Positions 9,388-32,000 are shown, numbered from the stretch's first letter. The stretch: 32,000 bases of DNA from Methylorubrum extorquens (GCA_900234795.1 LT962688.1:3150001-3182000); one strand, 5' to 3'. Notes: generated by a model not told the origin, from the sequence alone. Numbers and translations are program-made.

Positions 9388-10089
9388 ATGCCTTCGACCC
9401 CGCGCCGCTCCAGACGACGCCTCGCGCTCGTCCTGGCCTCTTCCGCCTTCATCCTCTCCACTGCTGCCGGCGTTCACGCTCAAGAGGGCGGACTTGGCGG
9501 CTTATTTCAGCAACTCTTTTCCCCGCAGCGGGCCGCGCCCGCTCCGGTGGTGGCCCCGATTCAGGTTTACGGCGGCGGCGAGGTCAACGAGCGTTATCGC
9601 TGGCGCCGGCATCGCAGTACGGCGGATCGGAGCCGGCCGAAGGTGCGTTACGCTGCCCTGCCGAAGGATGACGGTCTCGGGATCAGCGGCAAGCAGCCGG
9701 TCGATTCGAAAGCGATCGCCGCAAATCCGACCGCGGCGCTCCTGCGCGACGAAACCCTTCGCCCCGGCGACATCGTGGTCATGCCGGGCGGCCCAAAGGT
9801 CTTCAAGGGCCATGACGATCGCGGTCGCGGCGCCAAGGCGGCCCGCCACCGGATGAGCGACTTCGAGGATGTGAAGCACTCGCGCACGATCAATGCCAAG
9901 ACCCGCAGCCAATTGATGGCGATGATGCTTCCACACGGCGCTATGCCGGCCGAGGAGGCCCGCAAAGTGCTCGCCAAAGCCCGCCGTCTGGCCCCGCAGG
10001 AGGCAATCGAGCCGCTGACCCGACAGGCGCGCGCCGAGACCGACCCGAAACCCACCCGCATCATCAGCCCCTGGCAGATCGCCCGCTAG
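9388..10089 (+). CDS. hypothetical exported protein
   Basis: The ATG at 9388 lies 6 nt after caggag. The N-terminus MPSTPRRSRRRLALVLASSAFILSTAAGVHA/QE looks like a signal peptide. GC3 is high. I recognise no family. Confidence 0.6.
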   Translation: MPSTPRRSRRRLALVLASSAFILSTAAGVHAQEGGLGGLFQQLFSPQRAAPAPVVAPIQVYGGGEVNERYRWRRHRSTADRSRPKVRYAALPKDDGLGISGKQPVDSKAIAANPTAALLRDETLRPGDIVVMPGGPKVFKGHDDRGRGAKAARHRMSDFEDVKHSRTINAKTRSQLMAMMLPHGAMPAEEARKVLAKARRLAPQEAIEPLTRQARAETDPKPTRIISPWQIAR

Positions 10090-10352
10090 GGTCCAGGGGA
10101 AGCAGCGAGACCCGATCGGGCATCAAACGGCGGTCACAGGATGATCGACCCCATCCCGAGAGGGACCTGCTGAGCAGAGCCCTCGAGACTCGCGCTGCGG
10201 ACCATGCGCGATGGTGGCGGGGGGCCAATGGACTTGAGTGGTGAGGGCTGTGCCTACGGTACTTCGTCCGAGCGAACATTCAAGCCACGCCGCGGCGTTC
10301 GGCGTTGTCGCCTGAACCGCTCGTTCGCTGTGTCATTCTCGGGTAAGTATGA

Positions 10353-10428
10353 TGGTGGAGCCTAACGGGATCGAACCGATGACCTCTTCCATGCCATGGA
10401 AGCGCTCTCCCAGCTGAGCTAAGGCCCC
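10353..10428 (-). tRNA. tRNA-Ala (anticodon GGC)
   Basis: The reverse complement is GGGGCCTTAGCTCAGCTGGGAGAGCGCTTCCATGGCATGGAAGAGGTCATCGGTTCGATCCCGTTAGGCTCCACCA (76 nt). It has the G3:U70 Ala identity pair, an anticodon loop AT-GGC-AT, a GGTTCGATC T-arm and an encoded CCA. Confidence 0.93.
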
Positions 10429-10682
10429 ATCATTTTGGCCGTGACCGTTTCCGGTCTCTGGCCTCGCCGGCGGCGCTGAGTGCGTCGGCGATGAGCGGTT
10501 CTATACGGAGAGGATCGGCGGGACTCAACCCCCTTTTTTGAGGCGGAACCGAATTTTTGAGCCGCCTCCTCATCTCCAAGCGGTGCCAGCACGAAACATC
10601 GGTCAACCAGCCTCAGCCCGACGGCGGATCTTCCTTGGAGCCGCCGAAACCCCGCTTGCACGCCAATCCCGGCTATGCCCGG

Positions 10683-11477
10683 CTACTGCTGAGCCCGAAC
10701 GACGTAACGCTCCATCAGAAGCCTGATGGTAAGGCTGCCGAACACCCAACCAAAGAGATATAGATAATCGATCTGAGCAGGGATCGTCGGGTCGTATCCC
10801 AGGTGCACCCATTCGACGATCTGTGTGATCGGATTCCATTTCATGTAGTAGTAAATTTCATCTGGCATATAACATGCCATGAAATAAACACCGCTCGTCA
10901 AATACAAAGTCAACGTTACCAAGATGTAGCCCAGCGCCCATCCCGGAAAGACCGAACAGATCCCGACATTGATCGTCCCGACACCGATCCCGAGCGCGAT
11001 CGCCGTCAGGTAGCCGGTGATAGCCATCATCATGTCGGTGGGAACGGGATCGGCACCGAAGCAGATGAGCACGACACCAACGAGTCAGACGCCCAAGAAG
11101 CTGCTGACGATCTCGACAAGGATGCGTGCGACAACGGTATCGAAGCGCTTCACTTGCGGGAAGTACGTCAGCGGCTTGTGAACCATGTAACCTTTCATCA
11201 CCTCGCGGGAGATGTACTGAAAGGCGAGAGCCGGCAATGCGCCGGAGGCGACGAAGACCATCGAATCGTCGCCCATGAGCGACTTGATTCCACGGAATGT
11301 CATGGCGCCGACGATGATGCCGAGATGCACGCAGGGCCAGAGAACCTGCACGAGGTAGCCCCAGTAGGTTCCGCCGAAGCGGCTGCGCATGTCGCGCAGC
11401 ATCAGGGCACTGAGGACGCGCAGGTAGACGTCGAGATGGCTCTGACGGCGCGGCAGAGACGAGGCGTGGGCGTTCAT
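10683..11477 (-). pseudogene. KpsM/CtrC-type ABC-2 polysaccharide-export permease, interrupted by an in-frame TGA (11085-11087)
   Basis: ORFs 11085..11477 and 10683..11072 are in the same frame, reading ...EIVSSFLGV*LVGVVLICFG.... By eye they align with E. coli KpsM: LMLRDMRSRFGGTYWGYL vs FLREIRTRFGKFRLGYL; VKRFDTVVARILVE vs VKPIDTIIARALLE; WNPITQIVEW vs WNPLVHVVEL. GC falls to about 40-55% here against about 70% in the flanks. There is no adjacent KpsT-like ATPase. Confidence 0.75.
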
Positions 11478-24717: not shown

Positions 24718-26154
24718 TCAGCCGGCAGCCTTGTCGGCCGCCGCCTCGTTGTTGGACTCGCTCGGCTTCTCGTCCGTCGCGGCCCCGCCGGTCACGGCGT
24801 CGGCCTCGTCGTCTTCGGCGAAGAGCGCCTCCTTGGAGACGGGTTCCTCGACGACTTGGACCTGACCGAGGACATGGTCGACGACCTTCTCCTCGAACAG
24901 CGGCGCGCGAAGCTCGGCGAGCGCCTGCGGATTGTTGCGGTAGAAGTCGTAGACCTGCTTCTCCTGACCCGGGAACTGCCGGATCCGGGCGAACAGGGCC
25001 TGATTGACCTCGTCATCCGAGACCTTGATATCGGCGGTCTCGCCGACTTGCGCAAGCACCAGACCGAGCCGCACGCGGCGCTCGGCGATCTTGCGGTACT
25101 CCGCCTGCGAAGCCTCCTCGGTCGTGCCCTCGTCCTCGAAGGTCTTGCCGCGAGTCTTCAGGTCCTGCTCGACCTGCGCCCACACGGCGGCGAACTCCTG
25201 GTGGACAAGGCTCGGGGGCAGGTCGAAGGCGTACTTGCCGTCGAGCGCGTCGAGCAGCTCCTTCTTGAGCTTGCGACGGGACTGGGCCTCGTAATCGGAG
25301 CCGACGGCCTTGGAGACGGCTTCCTTCAGCTTCTCGAGGTCGTCCATGCCGAAGCGCTTGGCGAGTTCGTCGTCGATCTTGGTCTCGCCGGGGGCTGCGA
25401 CGGCCTTCACGGTCACGTCGAACTCGGCGTCCTTACCGGCGAGCTGCTCGGCCTGGTAATCGGCCGGGAAGGCCACCTTTACGAGGCGGCTGTCGCCGAC
25501 CTTGGCGCCGACGAGCTGGTCCTCGAAGCCGGGGATGAAGGTGTTGGAGCCGAGCTCCAGATCGACGTCCTCGCCCTTGCCGCCCTCGAACTCGGTGCCG
25601 TCGATGCGGCCGACGAAGTCGATGGTGACGCGGTCGCCGGACTGCGCCTCGGCGCCCTCCTCGCGCGGCTCGAAGGAGCGGCTGTCCTTGGCCATCCGCT
25701 CGAGCGTCTCATTGACCTCCTCGTCGGAGGGCTTGAGCACGAGCTTCTTGATCGAGACGTCGGAGAGGTCGGCGAGTTCGAAGCTCGGCAGCACCTCGAG
25801 CTTCACCTTGAAGGCCAGATCGCCCTTGGCATCGAGCGCGCGCTCGATGATGGTCTGCTCCTCGTCCTTCGGGAACTCGATCTGGGGCTCGAGCGCGAGG
25901 CGCAGGCCCTTGTCGGTGACGATCTGCTGGTTGGCCTCGTTGACGGCGTTCTGCAGCACGTCGGCCATCACCGACTTGCCGTAGACCTTGCGCAGATGCG
26001 CGACCGGCACCTTGCCGGGGCGGAAGCCCTTGATCTGGACCTTGCCCTTGATGTTCGAGAGCTCGGTGTTGAGGCGATCCTCAAGCTCGTTCGCGGGGAG
26101 GAGCACCTGAAACTCGCGCTTCAGCCCCTCGGAGGTCGTCTCGGTCACCTGCAT
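24718..26154 (-). CDS. tig: trigger factor
   Basis: [25 protein letters not shown]...[20 protein letters not shown] (the ribosome-binding GFRxGxxP motif), a PPIase-like middle region and an acidic C-terminus. I chose the ATG at 26152-26154 (478 aa). The ORF extension to 26316 runs into the tRNA. Confidence 0.95.
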
Positions 26155-26274
26155 CGTCGTTCGTCCGCTGTTTTCTAAAACCGCAATCTCGTCTTCGCGT
26201 GTCGCTGCGCCGGGGAAGCCCCCTTGCGGAAGCTCCGGCGGGAACCGTTCGGGTTCCTGACGCCGATACGGACA

Positions 26275-26359
26275 TGGTGCGGGCGGAGGGGCTCGAACCC
26301 CCACGTCTTGCGACACTGGAACCTAAATCCAGCGCGTCTACCAGTTCCGCCACGCCCGC
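26275..26359 (-). tRNA. tRNA-Leu (anticodon TAG)
   Basis: The reverse complement is GCGGGCGTGGCGGAACTGGTAGACGCGCTGGATTTAGGTTCCAGTGTCGCAAGACGTGGGGGTTCGAGCCCCTCCGCCCGCACCA (85 nt). It has the long variable arm typical of Leu and the anticodon stem-loop CTGGA-TT-TAG-GT-TCCAG. Confidence 0.92.
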
Positions 26360-27973: not shown

Positions 27974-28072
27974 GCATCATCCCGAAAGGTGGCCTCCGGC
28001 TTTCGGAAAAAGATGATGCAAAACGAAAGCCTAGAGCATCGTCCTGGATATCAGATCCAGGACGATGCTCTA
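27974..28072. repeat. composite palindromic intergenic element: two hairpins between the convergent MCO gene and the radical SAM operon
   Basis: Hairpin 1 pairs gcatcatc+ccgaaag (27974-27988) with ctttcgg (28000-28006) and gatgatgc (28012-28019), with an A5 bulge. Hairpin 2 is a perfect 18-bp palindrome, tagagcatcgtcctggat (28032-28049) - atcag - atccaggacgatgctcta (28055-28072). The motif tagagcatc also occurs at 27970-27978. Hairpin 2 overlaps the stop codon (28070-28072) of the radical SAM gene. Confidence 0.7.
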
Positions 28073-29383
28073 GCGAGGCGGCGGGAAGGTCCAGAAGAAC
28101 TCGCCCGAGCGTCCGCCCTGGAGCGAGACCTGCCGGGTGAGGAAGCGGCACTCCGCCGCCAGCGCGGCCTCGCTCCAGCCGGTGCAGGACAGCATCTTCA
28201 GGGAGACCGGGTCGTAGTCGAGACGATGCTCGGGGGGCGAGCGCACCATCAGGCCCGAGGGCAGCACGACGCAGTGATAGACCCGGAGCGCGCAGGGAAG
28301 CCGACGGGCGCGCTCGAAGTTGCGGCGAAAGGTTTCGGGATTGTCGCCGGGCAAACCCAGGATGATCTCGACGGCGAGGCTGGCCACCGCATCGAGCTTG
28401 GCGAAGGTCTCGTCGAAGCGCCGTTCGTCGTACGTGCGATCGACATGGGCCAGCACCGCGTTGTCGAAGCTCTGCAAGCCGATGCCGACATAGGCGTTGC
28501 TGACGGTGGCCAGGAAATCGAGATGCTCCTGCCGCACCGCTGCCGGGTAGACCTCGCAGATCAGCCCGTGACGCTCGAAGAAGCTGCTCTCCTCGGCGGC
28601 GCGCCGGAGGTTGAGGAAGGCATTGCGGTTGAGGTTCAACCCGGCATCGACGAGGAGCGCCGCGTAGACATCGTGGCCGGCGATGGCCTCGAACTCCTGG
28701 GTCAGATGATCGACCGCGCGCACGCGTTTGGGTGATTCCATCGTGCCCCACTCGCAGAACGAGCAGGTGAACGGGCAGCCCCGGTAGGTCTGGAGCACGC
28801 CGAGGCCGCCATGCTGCACGAGGTTCAGCGCGTAGGGCGAGGCGAGGCTGTCGAGATTGGCCAGCGGCCGGGCCGGGGTCTCGCGCCAGCCCGCGCCGTC
28901 TCGGACAGCGACGCCGCGCAGCGTACCGAGCGCGGCCGGGGTGCGCTGTTCGAGCGAGACAATTTCGAGGAAGGTCTCCTCGCCCTCGTTGATGACGAGG
29001 ACGTCGATGTCGTCCGCCGCCTTCGAGAACGGCGGACGCGCGAACATGACCGGCCGGGCCGAGGGTCCGCCGAAGACGACGAGCCGGGCCGGGTCGTCTT
29101 GCTTGATCAGCGCGGCGACGCGGCAGAGGAACGGCAGCGACCAAAGATAGGCCGAGAAGCCGACGATGTCGGGGTCAAAAGCGGTGATCTCGCGGGCGAC
29201 CCGCTCGGGGTCGCCACCGTTCAGATCCCAGACCCGGCAGACGAGACCGGGAAGGGCGGCGGCGCGCAGGGTGGCCTCGACCATGCGCAGGCCGAGATTG
29301 GGCACGAAGCTCGGCATCGCCGGATCGCGCTCCGGGTACTGCGCCACCAGCGCGATGCGCAGGCCGGAGCGGGCCGCTTTCAT
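28070..29383 (-). CDS. B12-binding-domain (class B-like) radical SAM protein, paralogue B
   Basis: 437 aa. The N-terminal Rossmann-like domain has DIVGFSAYLWS...VVFGGPSARP. The radical SAM cluster motif is YRGCPFTCSFCEWG (CxxxCxxC). The C-terminal signature is GEFFWTFP. Its ATG (29381-29383) overlaps the stop of the upstream paralogue (ATGA). Confidence 0.85.
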   Translation of the reverse strand: MKAARSGLRIALVAQYPERDPAMPSFVPNLGLRMVEATLRAAALPGLVCRVWDLNGGDPERVAREITAFDPDIVGFSAYLWSLPFLCRVAALIKQDDPARLVVFGGPSARPVMFARPPFSKAADDIDVLVINEGEETFLEIVSLEQRTPAALGTLRGVAVRDGAGWRETPARPLANLDSLASPYALNLVQHGGLGVLQTYRGCPFTCSFCEWGTMESPKRVRAVDHLTQEFEAIAGHDVYAALLVDAGLNLNRNAFLNLRRAAEESSFFERHGLICEVYPAAVRQEHLDFLATVSNAYVGIGLQSFDNAVLAHVDRTYDERRFDETFAKLDAVASLAVEIILGLPGDNPETFRRNFERARRLPCALRVYHCVVLPSGLMVRSPPEHRLDYDPVSLKMLSCTGWSEAALAAECRFLTRQVSLQGGRSGEFFWTFPPPR

Positions 29384-30759
29384 CGCGCGGCGGCCTGCCG
29401 CCACGAAGCGCGGGCTTGGGTGACGCGCTCGGGCTGACGGGGAAACGCCCACCAGAACTCGCCCGCCTTGCCGCCGGCGGCGAGCGCCCGGCGTCGCAAT
29501 TCTGCGCGGGTGCGCGCCACCGCGTCCTCGCTCCATCCCTCGCAGGAGCGCATCGTCAGCGTGTGCGGGTCGAAGCGGACATTCCATTCGGGCCGGCTGC
29601 GGGTCAGCAGCGCGTCGGGCAGGACGAGGCAGTGATAGACCCGGACGCTTGCGGGCAGCGACAGGGCGTAGTCGAGGGTGCGGAAGAAGCCCTCCGGCGT
29701 ATCGCCGGGCAGAACCGCGATGATCTGCAGCTCGATATTGGTGACGCGAGCCAGCGCCCGCACCGCCGCCTCGAAGCGGGGCGAGTCCGAGGGGCGGTCG
29801 TGCAGGCGCAAAACCGCCGGGTCCATCGATTGCATTCCGACGCCGAGATAGGCGGTGCCGATCTCCTCGATGAAGGCGAGATGCTCGTCGCGCACGATCG
29901 ACGGATAGATCTCCGCCCAGAGCAGGGTTTCCTTGAGAAAGCCCGAGCGCTGGTTGGCGAGCCGCAAGTTGCGGAAGGCGCCGATATTCAGGTTGAGGCC
30001 GGCATCGAGCAGGAACACCGCTGGCGCTTCCAGGGTGCGGAAGGCGTCGAGCTCGCGGGCGATGTAGTCGGCCGAGAACGAGGCCTTGCTGTTCTCCTTC
30101 GTGCCCCACTCGCAGAAGCGGCAGGAGAGCGGGCAGCCGCGGAAGCTTTCGAGATAGGCCACGCCCCCCTGCGGCATCAGCCCGTGCGCGTAGGGCGAGG
30201 CGATCCGGTCGAGGGCGGTGATGGGCGGGCGCCGCTCGGTCCGCTGCCAGCCGGTTGCCGTCGGCAGCGTCAGCCCGCGCACCCGCTCCCACGCGGCACG
30301 GTCGAGCTGCGGCAGCCGCGCGATTTCGCAGATGATCTCCTCGCCGTCGCCCTCGACCACGGCGTCGAGATAGGCATGGGCCGGGCGGTACGGTTCGAGA
30401 TCGAAGAAGGCGGATCGCGCCGAGGGACCGCCGAAGACGATGGCAAGCGAGGGGCGGCGCGCGCGCAGGGCCCGCGCTACCGCGATCATGGCCGGCGCCG
30501 ACCAGACATAGATCGAGAAGCCGACAAGGTCGGGCTCGAAATCCAGGATGTCCGCGACGTAAGCCTCGATATCGGCGGTGCGCCGGTCGAACAGTCGCAC
30601 GGACGCGTCGGCGAGATCGGGGTCGCCGAGCAAAGCCGCGTAGATGCGCCGGATGCCGTAGCTCGGCAGCAGCAGCTCGCCGAGTTCCTGCGCATCGGGG
30701 CGCGGCGTCATGCAGACGAGGGCGATGCGCCGATGCGTGGGGGAGGACGGCTCAAGCAT
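29380..30759 (-). CDS. B12-binding-domain (class B-like) radical SAM protein, paralogue A
   Basis: 459 aa. DLVGFSIYVWS...IVFGGPSARS, FRGCPLSCRFCEWG (CxxxCxxC), LPGDTPEGF, RVYHCLVLP and GEFWWAFP. It is collinear with paralogue B over its whole length. Confidence 0.85.
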   Translation of the reverse strand: MLEPSSPTHRRIALVCMTPRPDAQELGELLLPSYGIRRIYAALLGDPDLADASVRLFDRRTADIEAYVADILDFEPDLVGFSIYVWSAPAMIAVARALRARRPSLAIVFGGPSARSAFFDLEPYRPAHAYLDAVVEGDGEEIICEIARLPQLDRAAWERVRGLTLPTATGWQRTERRPPITALDRIASPYAHGLMPQGGVAYLESFRGCPLSCRFCEWGTKENSKASFSADYIARELDAFRTLEAPAVFLLDAGLNLNIGAFRNLRLANQRSGFLKETLLWAEIYPSIVRDEHLAFIEEIGTAYLGVGMQSMDPAVLRLHDRPSDSPRFEAAVRALARVTNIELQIIAVLPGDTPEGFFRTLDYALSLPASVRVYHCLVLPDALLTRSRPEWNVRFDPHTLTMRSCEGWSEDAVARTRAELRRRALAAGGKAGEFWWAFPRQPERVTQARASWRQAAAR

Positions 30760-30897
30760 GGTTTCGCGATGACCGGAGGGATGCCCAATGCGATCAGGCG
30801 TGAGGGAAGCGAATTTAAGGCCTTGGCAGAACTCGGGAGATCTAATCGACGCGTGCCGCCTTCACATCGTCTCAAGGCCTCAGCAGACTGATTCGGG

Positions 30898-31719
30898 TCA
30901 TCGCTTGTCGAGGCGACAATAGAGGTAGTGCAGGCAGCCGAGACGGTGCAGTTCCCGCAAGATGTCACCACCAGTCGGCTGGCCCCGTCGATCCGAGGCA
31001 ATGGTGTGATAGCTCGGCTCGGTGTTCGCGGTGGCGTCAGTCACCCGGAGGGTGAAGCCGGCGGCCTCCGCATCGCGGCGGATCGCGTCGAGCCCCGTCC
31101 ATTTGTCCGGCCAGGGGCCGAAGGCGGCTTCGAGCCCATCCGCGAACAGCGCGACCCGCTCCGGCGGCAGCGGCGGCCGGGTCAAGACGATGTCGCTCAT
31201 CACGAGAACGCCTTCCCGGGTCAGGACGCGCTGCGCCTCGCCGAAGAACGCGCGCCGGGAGGCGAAGTGGAACGCCGCCTCGACGCAGAGAAGCCGATCG
31301 AATGCGGCTTCCGCGAAGGGCAGACGGCAGGCATCGCCCGCGACCCAGGCAGCGTTGCGCGGCCGGTCATCCTGACGAAGTCCGACCGCGAGTTGGCGCG
31401 GATCGAGGTTGAGCCCGATCACGTCCACCTCGGGATCGCTCCGCCGGATCGCCCGCAGGGTGCCGCCGAAGCCGCAGCCGACATCGAGCACGCGGTGGCC
31501 CGGCGCGAGGTCGAGCCATGCGACGAGCGCCGCGCTCAACCGTTCCTGCGACTGCGCGAAACCCGCCCGCGCCCGGGTCGGCCCGACCGCCCCCGGCTCG
31601 TCCCAGTGGCCGAGATGGACATGATCGATCGCAGCGCCCTCCGCGACCGCCGCGAGGAACGCATCGAAATAGGCCGGAATCCGCGCCACTCGCCTAACCC
31701 CAGCAATGAACGGCGTCAC
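30898..31719 (-). CDS. class I SAM-dependent methyltransferase (Methyltransf_11/25-like, natural-product type)
   Basis: Motif I VLDVGCGFGGTL; acidic loop VIGLNLD; GDACRLPF; RVLTREGVLVMSD; and an upstream HLGHWDE motif. The GTG at 31719 overlaps the upstream gene by 26 nt. An alternative GTG at 31689 would start 4 nt after that gene's stop. Confidence 0.8.
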   Translation of the reverse strand: MTPFIAGVRRVARIPAYFDAFLAAVAEGAAIDHVHLGHWDEPGAVGPTRARAGFAQSQERLSAALVAWLDLAPGHRVLDVGCGFGGTLRAIRRSDPEVDVIGLNLDPRQLAVGLRQDDRPRNAAWVAGDACRLPFAEAAFDRLLCVEAAFHFASRRAFFGEAQRVLTREGVLVMSDIVLTRPPLPPERVALFADGLEAAFGPWPDKWTGLDAIRRDAEAAGFTLRVTDATANTEPSYHTIASDRRGQPTGGDILRELHRLGCLHYLYCRLDKR

Positions 31720-32000
31720 CGGTGCGGGATCGGGCCATGAAGGAGCAGGCGGTCCAGCGCAGGCGGGCGCCTTCCACCGGTGTCACCTGATGGAGGAAGC
31801 GGCCCGAGCGCAGGAGCACGATGGTCCCCGCCTCGACGTCGAAGGCGTGGCGGGCAAAGCGCGCGAGGTCGGGCTTTTCTCGCGCGCGATCGCGATTCTG
31901 GAACCGGCCCGACCACGCCTCCGCCTTGGCGTCGAAGACTTCCAGCATCCCGCCGCGCTCGGCCTTGGACAGGGTCAGCACGAAGGAGAAGATGTCGCCC
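31694..32000 (-). CDS. 2OG-Fe(II) oxygenase superfamily protein, C-terminal part (5' end lies beyond the window)
   Basis: The frame is open to the window edge: GDIFSFVLTLSKAERGGMLEVFD...GTIVLLRSGRFLHQVTPVEGARLRWTACSF. The distal His and Arg pattern (H-x-V-x-P-V...R-x-x) is typical of the jelly-roll 2OG oxygenase C-terminus. The HxD part would lie outside the window. Confidence 0.6.
   Translation of the reverse strand, partial: GDIFSFVLTLSKAERGGMLEVFDAKAEAWSGRFQNRDRAREKPDLARFARHAFDVEAGTIVLLRSGRFLHQVTPVEGARLRWTACSFMARSRTGDAVHCWG

Follow-up and report, generated by a model that had tools for sequence, protein, structure and literature searches.

Cobalamin-dependent radical S-adenosylmethionine (SAM) enzymes carry out some of the hardest chemistry in biology, such as the methylation of unactivated carbon, and to our knowledge few of them have a known function. 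In the maturation of polytheonamide, the cobalamin (B12)-dependent radical SAM C-methylases PoyB and PoyC are accompanied by a SAM-dependent methyltransferase, PoyE, and an Fe(II)/2-oxoglutarate (Fe/2OG) hydroxylase, PoyI. CysS, of the cystobactamid pathway, extends a methoxy group by repeated methylation (PMC12846815). Here, we analyze a stretch of 32,000 nucleotides from Methylorubrum extorquens (GCA_900234795.1 LT962688.1:3150001-3182000; hereafter the window, with positions counted from its first letter), the last part of which carries two tandem B12-type radical SAM paralogues (rSAM-A and rSAM-B), a class I methyltransferase, and an Fe/2OG oxygenase. The four genes form a conserved tailoring operon drawn from known enzyme superfamilies, and the widespread family to which the operon belongs has no characterized member. 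We propose, with a probability of roughly 0.4, that the operon encodes a cassette for hydroxylation and methylation that is linked to giant secreted proteins.

A conserved four-gene tailoring operon

An earlier, sequence-only reading of the window had placed four minus-strand genes between 28070 and 32000, and all four open reading frames (ORFs) are found there. The first in the direction of transcription is the oxygenase gene, which enters from beyond the window and contributes its final 101 codons (31694-32000). The methyltransferase gene (30898-31719, 273 aa) begins with GTG; an alternative GTG at 31689 gives 263 aa and is the start used by public gene callers (30898-31689). Depending on the GTG chosen, the methyltransferase gene either begins 4 nt past the oxygenase stop codon (TAG, 31696-31694) or shares 26 nt with the end of the oxygenase gene, so that the genes overlap or abut as had been claimed. 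A spacer of 138 nt (30760-30897) separates the methyltransferase gene from rSAM-A (29380-30759, 459 aa), the stop codon of which shares the sequence ATGA (29380-29383) with the start codon of rSAM-B (28070-29383, 437 aa); the gap and the overlap were both noted before and are read directly in the sequence. The four genes are real, are laid out for co-transcription, and are kept as a unit.

The operon is closed by a strong intrinsic-terminator hairpin (28031-28073, minus strand) that begins at the rSAM-B stop codon; its 19-bp stem, in which 10 of the pairs are G-C, carries a loop of 5 nt and is followed by a T-rich tail. Because the hairpin sits between the convergent rSAM-B and multicopper-oxidase genes, it may serve both. 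The 138-nt spacer has no Rfam match, no unusual fold (z-score 0.77), and no promoter-like site, and its counterparts in other taxa range from about -19 to 147 nt. The sequence-only reading had seen no cobalamin riboswitch; indeed, none of the RF00174 type was found, and tRNAs are the only Rfam matches at the gathering threshold in the window and in six related loci.

To place the operon among its relatives, a pattern scan was run over a collection holding one genome per species. It confirmed 127 places with rSAM-A relatives, of which the best 80 loci were retained for neighborhood work; ratios given below out of 38 refer to the cassette loci that are fully flanked. Orthologues of each paralogue are 50-98% identical and come from at least three phyla. 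On the alphaproteobacterial side the hosts are Methylobacteriaceae, Xanthobacteraceae, Beijerinckiaceae, Acetobacteraceae, and Rhodobacteraceae; Burkholderiales, Sulfuritalea, Nitrosovibrio, Cellvibrionales, Planctomycetota, and Acidobacteriota extend the range, which thus comprises Alpha-, Beta-, and Gammaproteobacteria, Planctomycetota, and Acidobacteriota. Set against 1.84 billion representatives, this is a discrete family, 187 matches being found at E ≤ 1e-30.

In 77 of the 80 loci rSAM-A is followed by rSAM-B on the same strand, and the oxygenase-methyltransferase pair adjoins them in 29/38, which bears out the co-occurrence that the four genes had been expected to show in other genomes. 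Wherever the neighborhood survey found both genes of this pair, the oxygenase gene comes first. The two pairs occur in at least six gene orders, including oxygenase-methyltransferase-A-B, A-B-oxygenase-methyltransferase, and a divergent methyltransferase-oxygenase pair with A-B, which argues for selection on linkage, and recurrence of the set in dozens of distant genomes is far beyond chance. The analysis defines a strongly conserved family in which the paralogues are nearly always in tandem, usually together with a fixed hydroxylase-methyltransferase pair. Only seven Methylobacterium/Methylorubrum species carry the A-B pair (one genome per species), indicating that it is an accessory trait rather than a core one.

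One locus shows the pair in other company. In Maricurvus nonylphenolicus (L048:7514-12675), A-B occurs without the oxygenase and methyltransferase genes and begins 6 nt past two ORFs judged to encode ubiH/visC-like FAD monooxygenases, in an operon of the ygfB-pepP-ubiH type. This arrangement may be a coincidence, or the monooxygenases may be an alternative hydroxylase partner.

An anti-phage defense system was considered and dropped: PADLOC gave no specific defense-system match, the matches being generic only (PDC-M51A, 62 and 51 bits; a mad2 methyltransferase domain; 2OG).

Predicted chemistry of the four enzymes

Both radical SAM proteins pass the Pfam gathering thresholds for the B12-binding domain (PF02310, 32.1 bits; rSAM-A 41.9, rSAM-B 52.1) and for the radical SAM domain (PF04055, 29.5 bits; 44.3 and 49.9), and the N-terminal domain that had been read as B12-binding is thereby borne out. 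They are collinear paralogues with 42% identity across 430 residues (E 2e-112). The blocks that the sequence-only reading had listed as shared (RGCP..C.FCEWG, GGPSAR, DAGLNLN, VYHC.VLP) are nearly invariant in 79 rSAM-A and 67 rSAM-B orthologues. Within them, RGCP(L/F)(S/T)C(R/S)FCEWG is invariant in both sets, and the CxxxCxxC motif of rSAM-B (RGCPFTCSFCEWG) is invariant in its 67 orthologues. Both paralogues retain the [4Fe-4S]/SAM motif and the B12-binding domain and, as the catalytic motifs are invariant in both, both are probably active.

The proteins fall outside the characterized radical SAM subfamilies, as had been suspected, since no NCBIfam model comes near its cut-off. The top match of the pair is KedN5 (NF033712; 90.8 bits for rSAM-A and 93 for rSAM-B, cut-off 700), and A and B fall short of the KedN5/TokK/CysS family both in score and in full-length architecture (about 624 aa). 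HpnR (70 and 56 bits, cut-off 650), HpnJ (20 and 26, cut-off 577.6), and BchE (32 and 54, cut-off 481) score lower still, and PhpK is likewise far under its cut-off; hopanoid, bacteriochlorophyll (BChl), PhpK, and other named families were rejected on these scores. Together with the PF02310 matches and the co-occurrence of the genes, the sub-cut-off scores support the earlier claim of an uncharacterized modification cassette.

These scores also bear on a housekeeping role in lipid or cofactor synthesis, which we regard as highly improbable: a hopanoid step (HpnP/HpnR-like), a BChl side-chain step (BchQ/BchR-like), or C7/C9 methylation of dephospho-tetrahydromethanopterin (dH4MPT). Such a role would fit the weak HpnR match and the fact that many of the host lineages make hopanoids or use tetrahydromethanopterin (H4MPT). 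In addition, MJ0619, once the archaeal candidate for a pterin methylase, is now assigned as a tetraether synthase (PMC9433317), which leaves room for other pterin methylases. Against it, the HpnR, HpnJ, and BchE scores are far too low, and no hopanoid, bch, or H4MPT genes were found near the cassette in the 80 loci. A universal step would be expected in all Methylobacterium/Methylorubrum species, not in seven, and the hosts include Rhodobacteraceae and Cellvibrionales, groups that are not known for hopanoid, BChl, or dH4MPT pathways. The dH4MPT pterin methylases, for which the host range is suggestive, were rejected on the same count of seven species.

The best PDB sequence matches of the pair are TokK and CysS (E 6e-16 to 5e-20), rSAM-B being closest to TokK (7kdx, E 5e-20). 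An AlphaFold2 model of rSAM-A (pLDDT 83.9) retrieves CysS (9n1b, E 2.5e-21, TMq 0.69) as the top Foldseek match, followed by TokK (7kdx), TsrM, MgmA, and OxsB. The TMt values are only 0.48-0.53 because the C-terminal domain of the targets has no counterpart in the model. The nearest sequences and structures (CysS, TokK, TsrM, and MgmA) are all cobalamin-dependent methylases. With moderate to good support, rSAM-A and rSAM-B are predicted to be cobalamin-dependent radical C-methyltransferases for unactivated carbon. The two would act successively or as a hetero-oligomer, in the manner of the iterative methylases CysS and TokK.

Among more distant relatives, one protein fuses a B12-type radical SAM module to a PhyH Fe/2OG dioxygenase (P0326, 883 aa), and two carry two or three B12-type radical SAM modules per chain (P0347 and P0354, 1048 and 1499 aa). 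An apparent A-B fusion (P0028, 781 aa) was rejected as a frameshift artefact.

The oxygenase fragment in the window matches PF22814 (E 1.3e-20). Since the window cuts the gene, the full-length protein was read from a Logan contig (L001:4433-5248, 271 aa), and it matches PF22814 over its whole length with 187.9 bits (gathering threshold 27 bits). Its best PDB sequence match is WelO5 (E 1e-13). In WelO5-type halogenases, Gly or Ala replaces the carboxylate ligand (HxG/A), so that halide can bind the iron. The cassette oxygenase has H-F-D aligned on H-V-G166 of WelO5, and its His-Asp-His iron triad, completed by a distal His, does not vary among 55 orthologues. The HxD triad identifies the enzyme as of hydroxylase type and rules out a WelO5-like halogenase. 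Hydroxylation of a C-H bond is thus the predicted role of the WelO5-fold enzyme, and the support is moderate to good.

The methyltransferase matches Methyltransf_11 (62.9 bits) and CMAS (39.9 bits). Its top NCBIfam match, the DVU_1556 family, is sub-threshold (77 bits versus 155), as are the fatty-acid O-methyltransferase Mtf2 and phthiotriol O-methyltransferase. None of the four proteins attains the cut-off of a characterized NCBIfam family. The motifs VLDVGCGFGG and HLGHWD, to which the sequence-only reading had drawn attention, are present and are conserved in 54 orthologues; the latter, associated there with EryG-type enzymes, is no more than a general signature of small-molecule methyltransferases. 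The enzyme is predicted, again with moderate to good support, to methylate a heteroatom, most simply the hydroxyl group that the oxygenase would have introduced.

In the foregoing, much is compatible with a cassette that tailors a free or carrier-tethered small molecule in secondary metabolism, the chief alternative to our reading and one that we consider possible but rather unlikely. Here, hydroxylation and methoxy formation would be followed by extension of the methyl group to ethyl, isopropyl, or larger alkyl groups by the radical SAM pair, on the pattern of CysS and TokK. CysS and TokK are closest in both sequence and structure, the top-scoring KedN5 family consists of small-molecule C-methylases, and the WelO5-family enzymes, with which the oxygenase groups so strongly (187.9 bits), work on free-standing small molecules; the best sub-threshold matches of the methyltransferase are lipid and small-molecule O-methyltransferases. 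The sporadic spread in Methylobacterium (only seven species genomes) is typical of secondary metabolism, too. On the other side, CysS and TokK have a C-terminal domain of roughly 200 aa that is missing from A and B, and no recurrent scaffold-forming enzyme (nonribosomal peptide synthetase (NRPS), polyketide synthase, terpene synthase, or carrier protein) was found across the 80 loci. The neighboring genes bear on the choice as well.

The upstream giant gene and the export module

The sequence-only reading had advised extension past 32000 in search of precursor genes and further tailoring genes. No small precursor gene appears there, and directly upstream lies a giant gene instead. In long-read Methylobacterium assemblies, a same-strand gap of 178 nt separates the oxygenase gene from the end of a gene of about 47 kb, which encodes a protein of 15,774 or 15,713 aa and lies just past window position 32000 (L164:1-8072, L166:1-8072, L001:1-4254). 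The examined part of the protein is of the repeats-in-toxin (RTX) type (HemolysinCabind, E 5e-129), and its repeat unit measures about 57 aa. When the C-terminal part of the protein served as query, only three partial proteins were recovered. Other giant ORFs lie beside the cassette in L016, L020 (>3138 aa), L050 (RTX, >2082 aa), L043, and L063. In M. segetis, the giant ORF upstream was rejected, being an unrelated PATR autotransporter on the opposite strand.

In other taxa, extension beyond the cassette reveals three recurrent neighbor sets (80-locus survey), the first of which is a dedicated export and protease module. It comprises five genes, for DUF3467, a GAF-HlyD protein, a PqqD-M50-HlyD protein, a SecA-like ATPase (about 600-670 aa; labelled 'prepilin peptidase' by NCBI in some cases), and a short HlyD protein, and it is often accompanied by an outer-membrane beta-barrel protein (L012, L014, L016, L022-L034, L030, L083-L162; for example, L090:7729-14938). 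The second set is a P-loop kinase-like protein with an uncharacterized protein of about 250 aa (unk250), and the third consists of a small radical SAM protein, a 300-aa uncharacterized protein (unk300), an O-methyltransferase, Trp-halogenase-like flavoproteins, and SapC. Neither unk250 nor unk300 has an informative Pfam or NCBIfam assignment or a PDB sequence match; DUF3467 matches only a family of unknown function and no PDB sequence. Two further candidates for conserved partners were rejected, 'big814' (L030) and cluster c12, the latter because it is merely the antisense ORF of SapC, the small radical SAM protein, and unk300.

The export module adjoins the cassette in 13/38 loci. A metagenome scan with the PqqD-M50 protein as query gave at least 600 matches, from which 80 loci were retained, and only two of these 80 hold parts of the cassette. 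Of the loci retained, 28 have at least 3 kb of upstream sequence, and in 22 of these the module comes straight after a same-strand giant ORF, 700 to >2800 aa long and running off the locus. Across 1364 aa, the giant proteins of Methylobacterium and L089 share 41% identity, and the L089 gene precedes such a module. Other tailoring genes (small radical SAM protein, P-loop protein, O-methyltransferase, and SapC) stand between the giant gene and the module in L136, L138, L101, and L110, and the cassette in Methylobacterium occupies the same slot. The PqqD domain of the M50 protein, a peptide-recognition fold, scores 27.1 bits versus a threshold of 23.4, and the protein resembles the daptide and YydH leader proteases (daptide_HExxH, E 2e-44); a PqqD domain joined to an M50 leader-protease-like core suggests that the cargo is a peptide or a protein.

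A second tailoring set (small radical SAM protein, 300-aa uncharacterized protein, P-loop kinase-like protein, and O-methyltransferase) is seen on modules that have no B12-type radical SAM gene (L136:1280-6944, L138:3427-7011, L139, L158). In L136, two DUF3467 copies flank it.

The giant proteins have sequence features of their own. The motif (L/F)E.LEPR.LLSAD is common to giant ORFs beside the cassette (L020:11880-, L050:15062-, L043:-4770, L063:-4620) and to that of L073 (L073:-6879), and it occurs in ORFs just past the export module (L127:16388-, L143:6315-, L149:11574-, L150:15016-). It stands at the end of a basic N-terminal stretch, some 20-160 residues after the frame opens, and may serve the PqqD-M50 export module as a leader or as a sorting signal. 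Many giant proteins (L088, L101, L110, L130, L150, L100) bear an xIDW(S/N) or VNWND-like motif at the C-terminus, similar to the V.WND with which the conserved part of DUF3467 begins (L012:2042-2386, L030:20346-20705). The literature searched held nothing relevant to DUF3467 or to the LEPRLLLSA motif and no description of a module combining SecA, PqqD, HlyD, and M50.

Our reading, to which we gave a probability of roughly 0.4, is that the four enzymes decorate the upstream 15,774-aa RTX-repeat protein or a piece of it, by a scheme modelled on the action of PoyB/C, PoyE, and PoyI on polytheonamide precursors. Elsewhere, the cassette would be one of several optional tailoring sets on giant repeat-protein genes combined with the export and processing module. 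A narrower version, that the enzymes are maturases that C-methylate, hydroxylate, and methylate residues within the repeats of a giant RTX-type protein, as one optional tailoring set of a widespread but undescribed secretion and maturation system marked by the (L/F)E.LEPR.LLSAD leader, is more doubtful. According to this version, the leader would be recognized and cut by the PqqD-M50 protease, and the SecA-like ATPase, the three HlyD-type adaptors, and DUF3467 would export the giant protein.

Several points weigh against a giant protein as the substrate. The weakest step is the link between enzymes and substrate, for which the evidence is solely gene neighborhood. A hairpin follows the stop codon of the giant gene, ahead of the cassette, so the cassette probably has its own transcript. 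The five Methylobacterium loci with the RTX gene probably represent a single evolutionary event, and about half of the fully flanked loci have no giant ORF or export module within 10 kb. In 8/38 loci (for example, in Maricurvus L048, L052, and L067) the A-B pair stands alone among housekeeping genes. The export module is not present in the window, and no Methylobacterium-named SecA-like module occurs among the best 120 of 7322 relatives of the Enterovirga copy. The nearest characterized relatives (CysS, TokK, and WelO5) use small or pantetheine-tethered molecules, not proteins, and the models for C-methylases of ribosomally synthesized and post-translationally modified peptides (RiPPs), TIGR03975 and ApyD, score below KedN5.

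If a small molecule were the target, the neighboring export genes would secrete the compound and the giant proteins would be bystanders. The AMP-ligase and TonB-dependent receptor genes that adjoin the cassette in Betaproteobacteria would suit this explanation, as would the Trp-halogenase-like, SapC, and O-methyltransferase genes found with it in Planctomycetes and some Alphaproteobacteria, a kind of neighborhood predicted to make a siderophore-like compound (Iyer et al., PMC2938197). The failure to find a precursor peptide in the 80 loci is also in its favor. The PqqD peptide-recognition domain and M50 leader-protease-like core of the associated protease speak against it, as does the tie of the export module to giant proteins in 22/28 loci.

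The search for precursors weighs against a conventional proteusin-like RiPP set with a short precursor that is encoded elsewhere or was missed, which is improbable. All ORFs of 25-140 aa outside the conserved genes were clustered across the 80 loci, and the intergenic parts yielded low-complexity noise only, with no conserved ORF; the cassette clusters are tightly packed, their gene spacing leaves no room for a precursor gene, and no NHLP or Nif11 family matches were seen. Several genomes, moreover, have A-B by itself. The proteusin analogy of the sequence-only reading holds for the enzyme classes, which mirror PoyB/C (B12-type radical SAM), PoyE (methyltransferase), and PoyI (Fe/2OG), and fails for family membership: the pair gives weak matches to the RiPP models ApyD (53 and 66 bits for rSAM-A and rSAM-B) and TIGR03975 (50.1 and 31.9, cut-off 281.85), and all family scores are far under the cut-offs. 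Also on the side of a RiPP is the adjacency, in 13/38 loci, of PqqD-M50 proteases like the daptide and YydH leader peptidases. Both this set and a housekeeping role in lipid or cofactor synthesis are less likely than small-molecule tailoring.

If the gene context is a true guide and the giant protein is the substrate, the operon would represent radical methylation of a giant secreted adhesin-like protein, that is, polytheonamide-style chemistry on a protein that exceeds every known RiPP in size by a factor of hundreds. The common five-gene module for export and processing would gain in interest as well. With a small-molecule target, the cassette would instead offer genome mining and biocatalysis a portable unit that builds alkoxy or branched alkyl groups. 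As Methylobacterium is genetically tractable and the giant protein is detectable by mass spectrometry, the question is directly testable.

The remainder of the window is ordinary chromosome, including tig, clpP, clpX, lon, and tRNAs. A tRNA-Leu(tag) gene (26275-26359, minus strand) lies upstream of tig, between tig and the multicopper-oxidase gene that precedes the cassette, and could be the integration site for an accessory region comprising oxidase, cassette, and giant gene. ARAGORN also calls a tRNA-Ser(cga) (25746-25839, plus strand) within the trigger-factor ORF (24718-26316, minus strand); the call has no Rfam support and is probably a false positive. The kilobase lowest in G+C (10001-11000; 0.594 versus about 0.67-0.70) adjoins a tRNA-Ala gene (10353-10428) and two small membrane-protein ORFs (10683-11477), and it may be foreign DNA.

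Comparison with known systems

For the radical SAM pair, the closest described enzymes are CysS, the carbapenem enzymes TokK and ThnK, and the KedN5 family (NF033712), in which, as here, an N-terminal B12 Rossmann domain precedes the radical SAM barrel. The successive methyl additions of CysS and TokK fit a tandem paralogue pair beside a hydroxylase and a methyltransferase. Identity to CysS and TokK is only 19-20%, and A and B are shorter (437-459 aa versus 624-681 aa) because the C-terminal substrate-binding domain is missing. In CysS and TokK a single enzyme acts iteratively, whereas here there are two dedicated paralogues, outside any NRPS or carbapenem context.

The cassette oxygenase shares its fold with WelO5, a carrier-protein-independent Fe/2OG halogenase (PF22814). 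The two differ at the ligand position, where Gly166 of WelO5 corresponds to Asp in the oxygenase, and the alignment agrees with the engineered G166D hydroxylase variant of WelO5 (5iqu).

The upstream neighbor, a giant HemolysinCabind repeat protein, recalls the giant RTX adhesins and S-layer proteins secreted by type 1 systems (LapA type; Campylobacter fetus sapCDEF), and SapC-family genes in the extended clusters, together with the HlyD-type adaptors, add to the likeness. Unlike type 1 systems, the module associated with the cassette in other taxa has no ABC transporter, and a SecA-like ATPase, three HlyD-type proteins, and DUF3467 are found instead. The 715-aa protein of this module, which is absent from the Methylobacterium locus, resembles the intramembrane M50 leader proteases with a RiPP recognition element (PqqD) of the daptide, YydH, and LiaK type in having a PqqD domain and an HExxH M50 core. 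It differs in its sub-cut-off score (152 bits versus 300), in its fusion to an HlyD adaptor, and in being paired with giant proteins, not short precursors.

Compared with the proteusin pathway, the cassette has the same four enzyme classes; this likeness to the polytheonamide system is one of class only. No NHLP/Nif11 precursor gene and no epimerase were seen in the loci. The candidate substrate, at about 15,700 aa, dwarfs the 49-residue core peptide of polytheonamide, and the possible substrate here would be polytheonamide-like in one respect, as a repeat-rich polypeptide forming a beta-helix or beta-roll.

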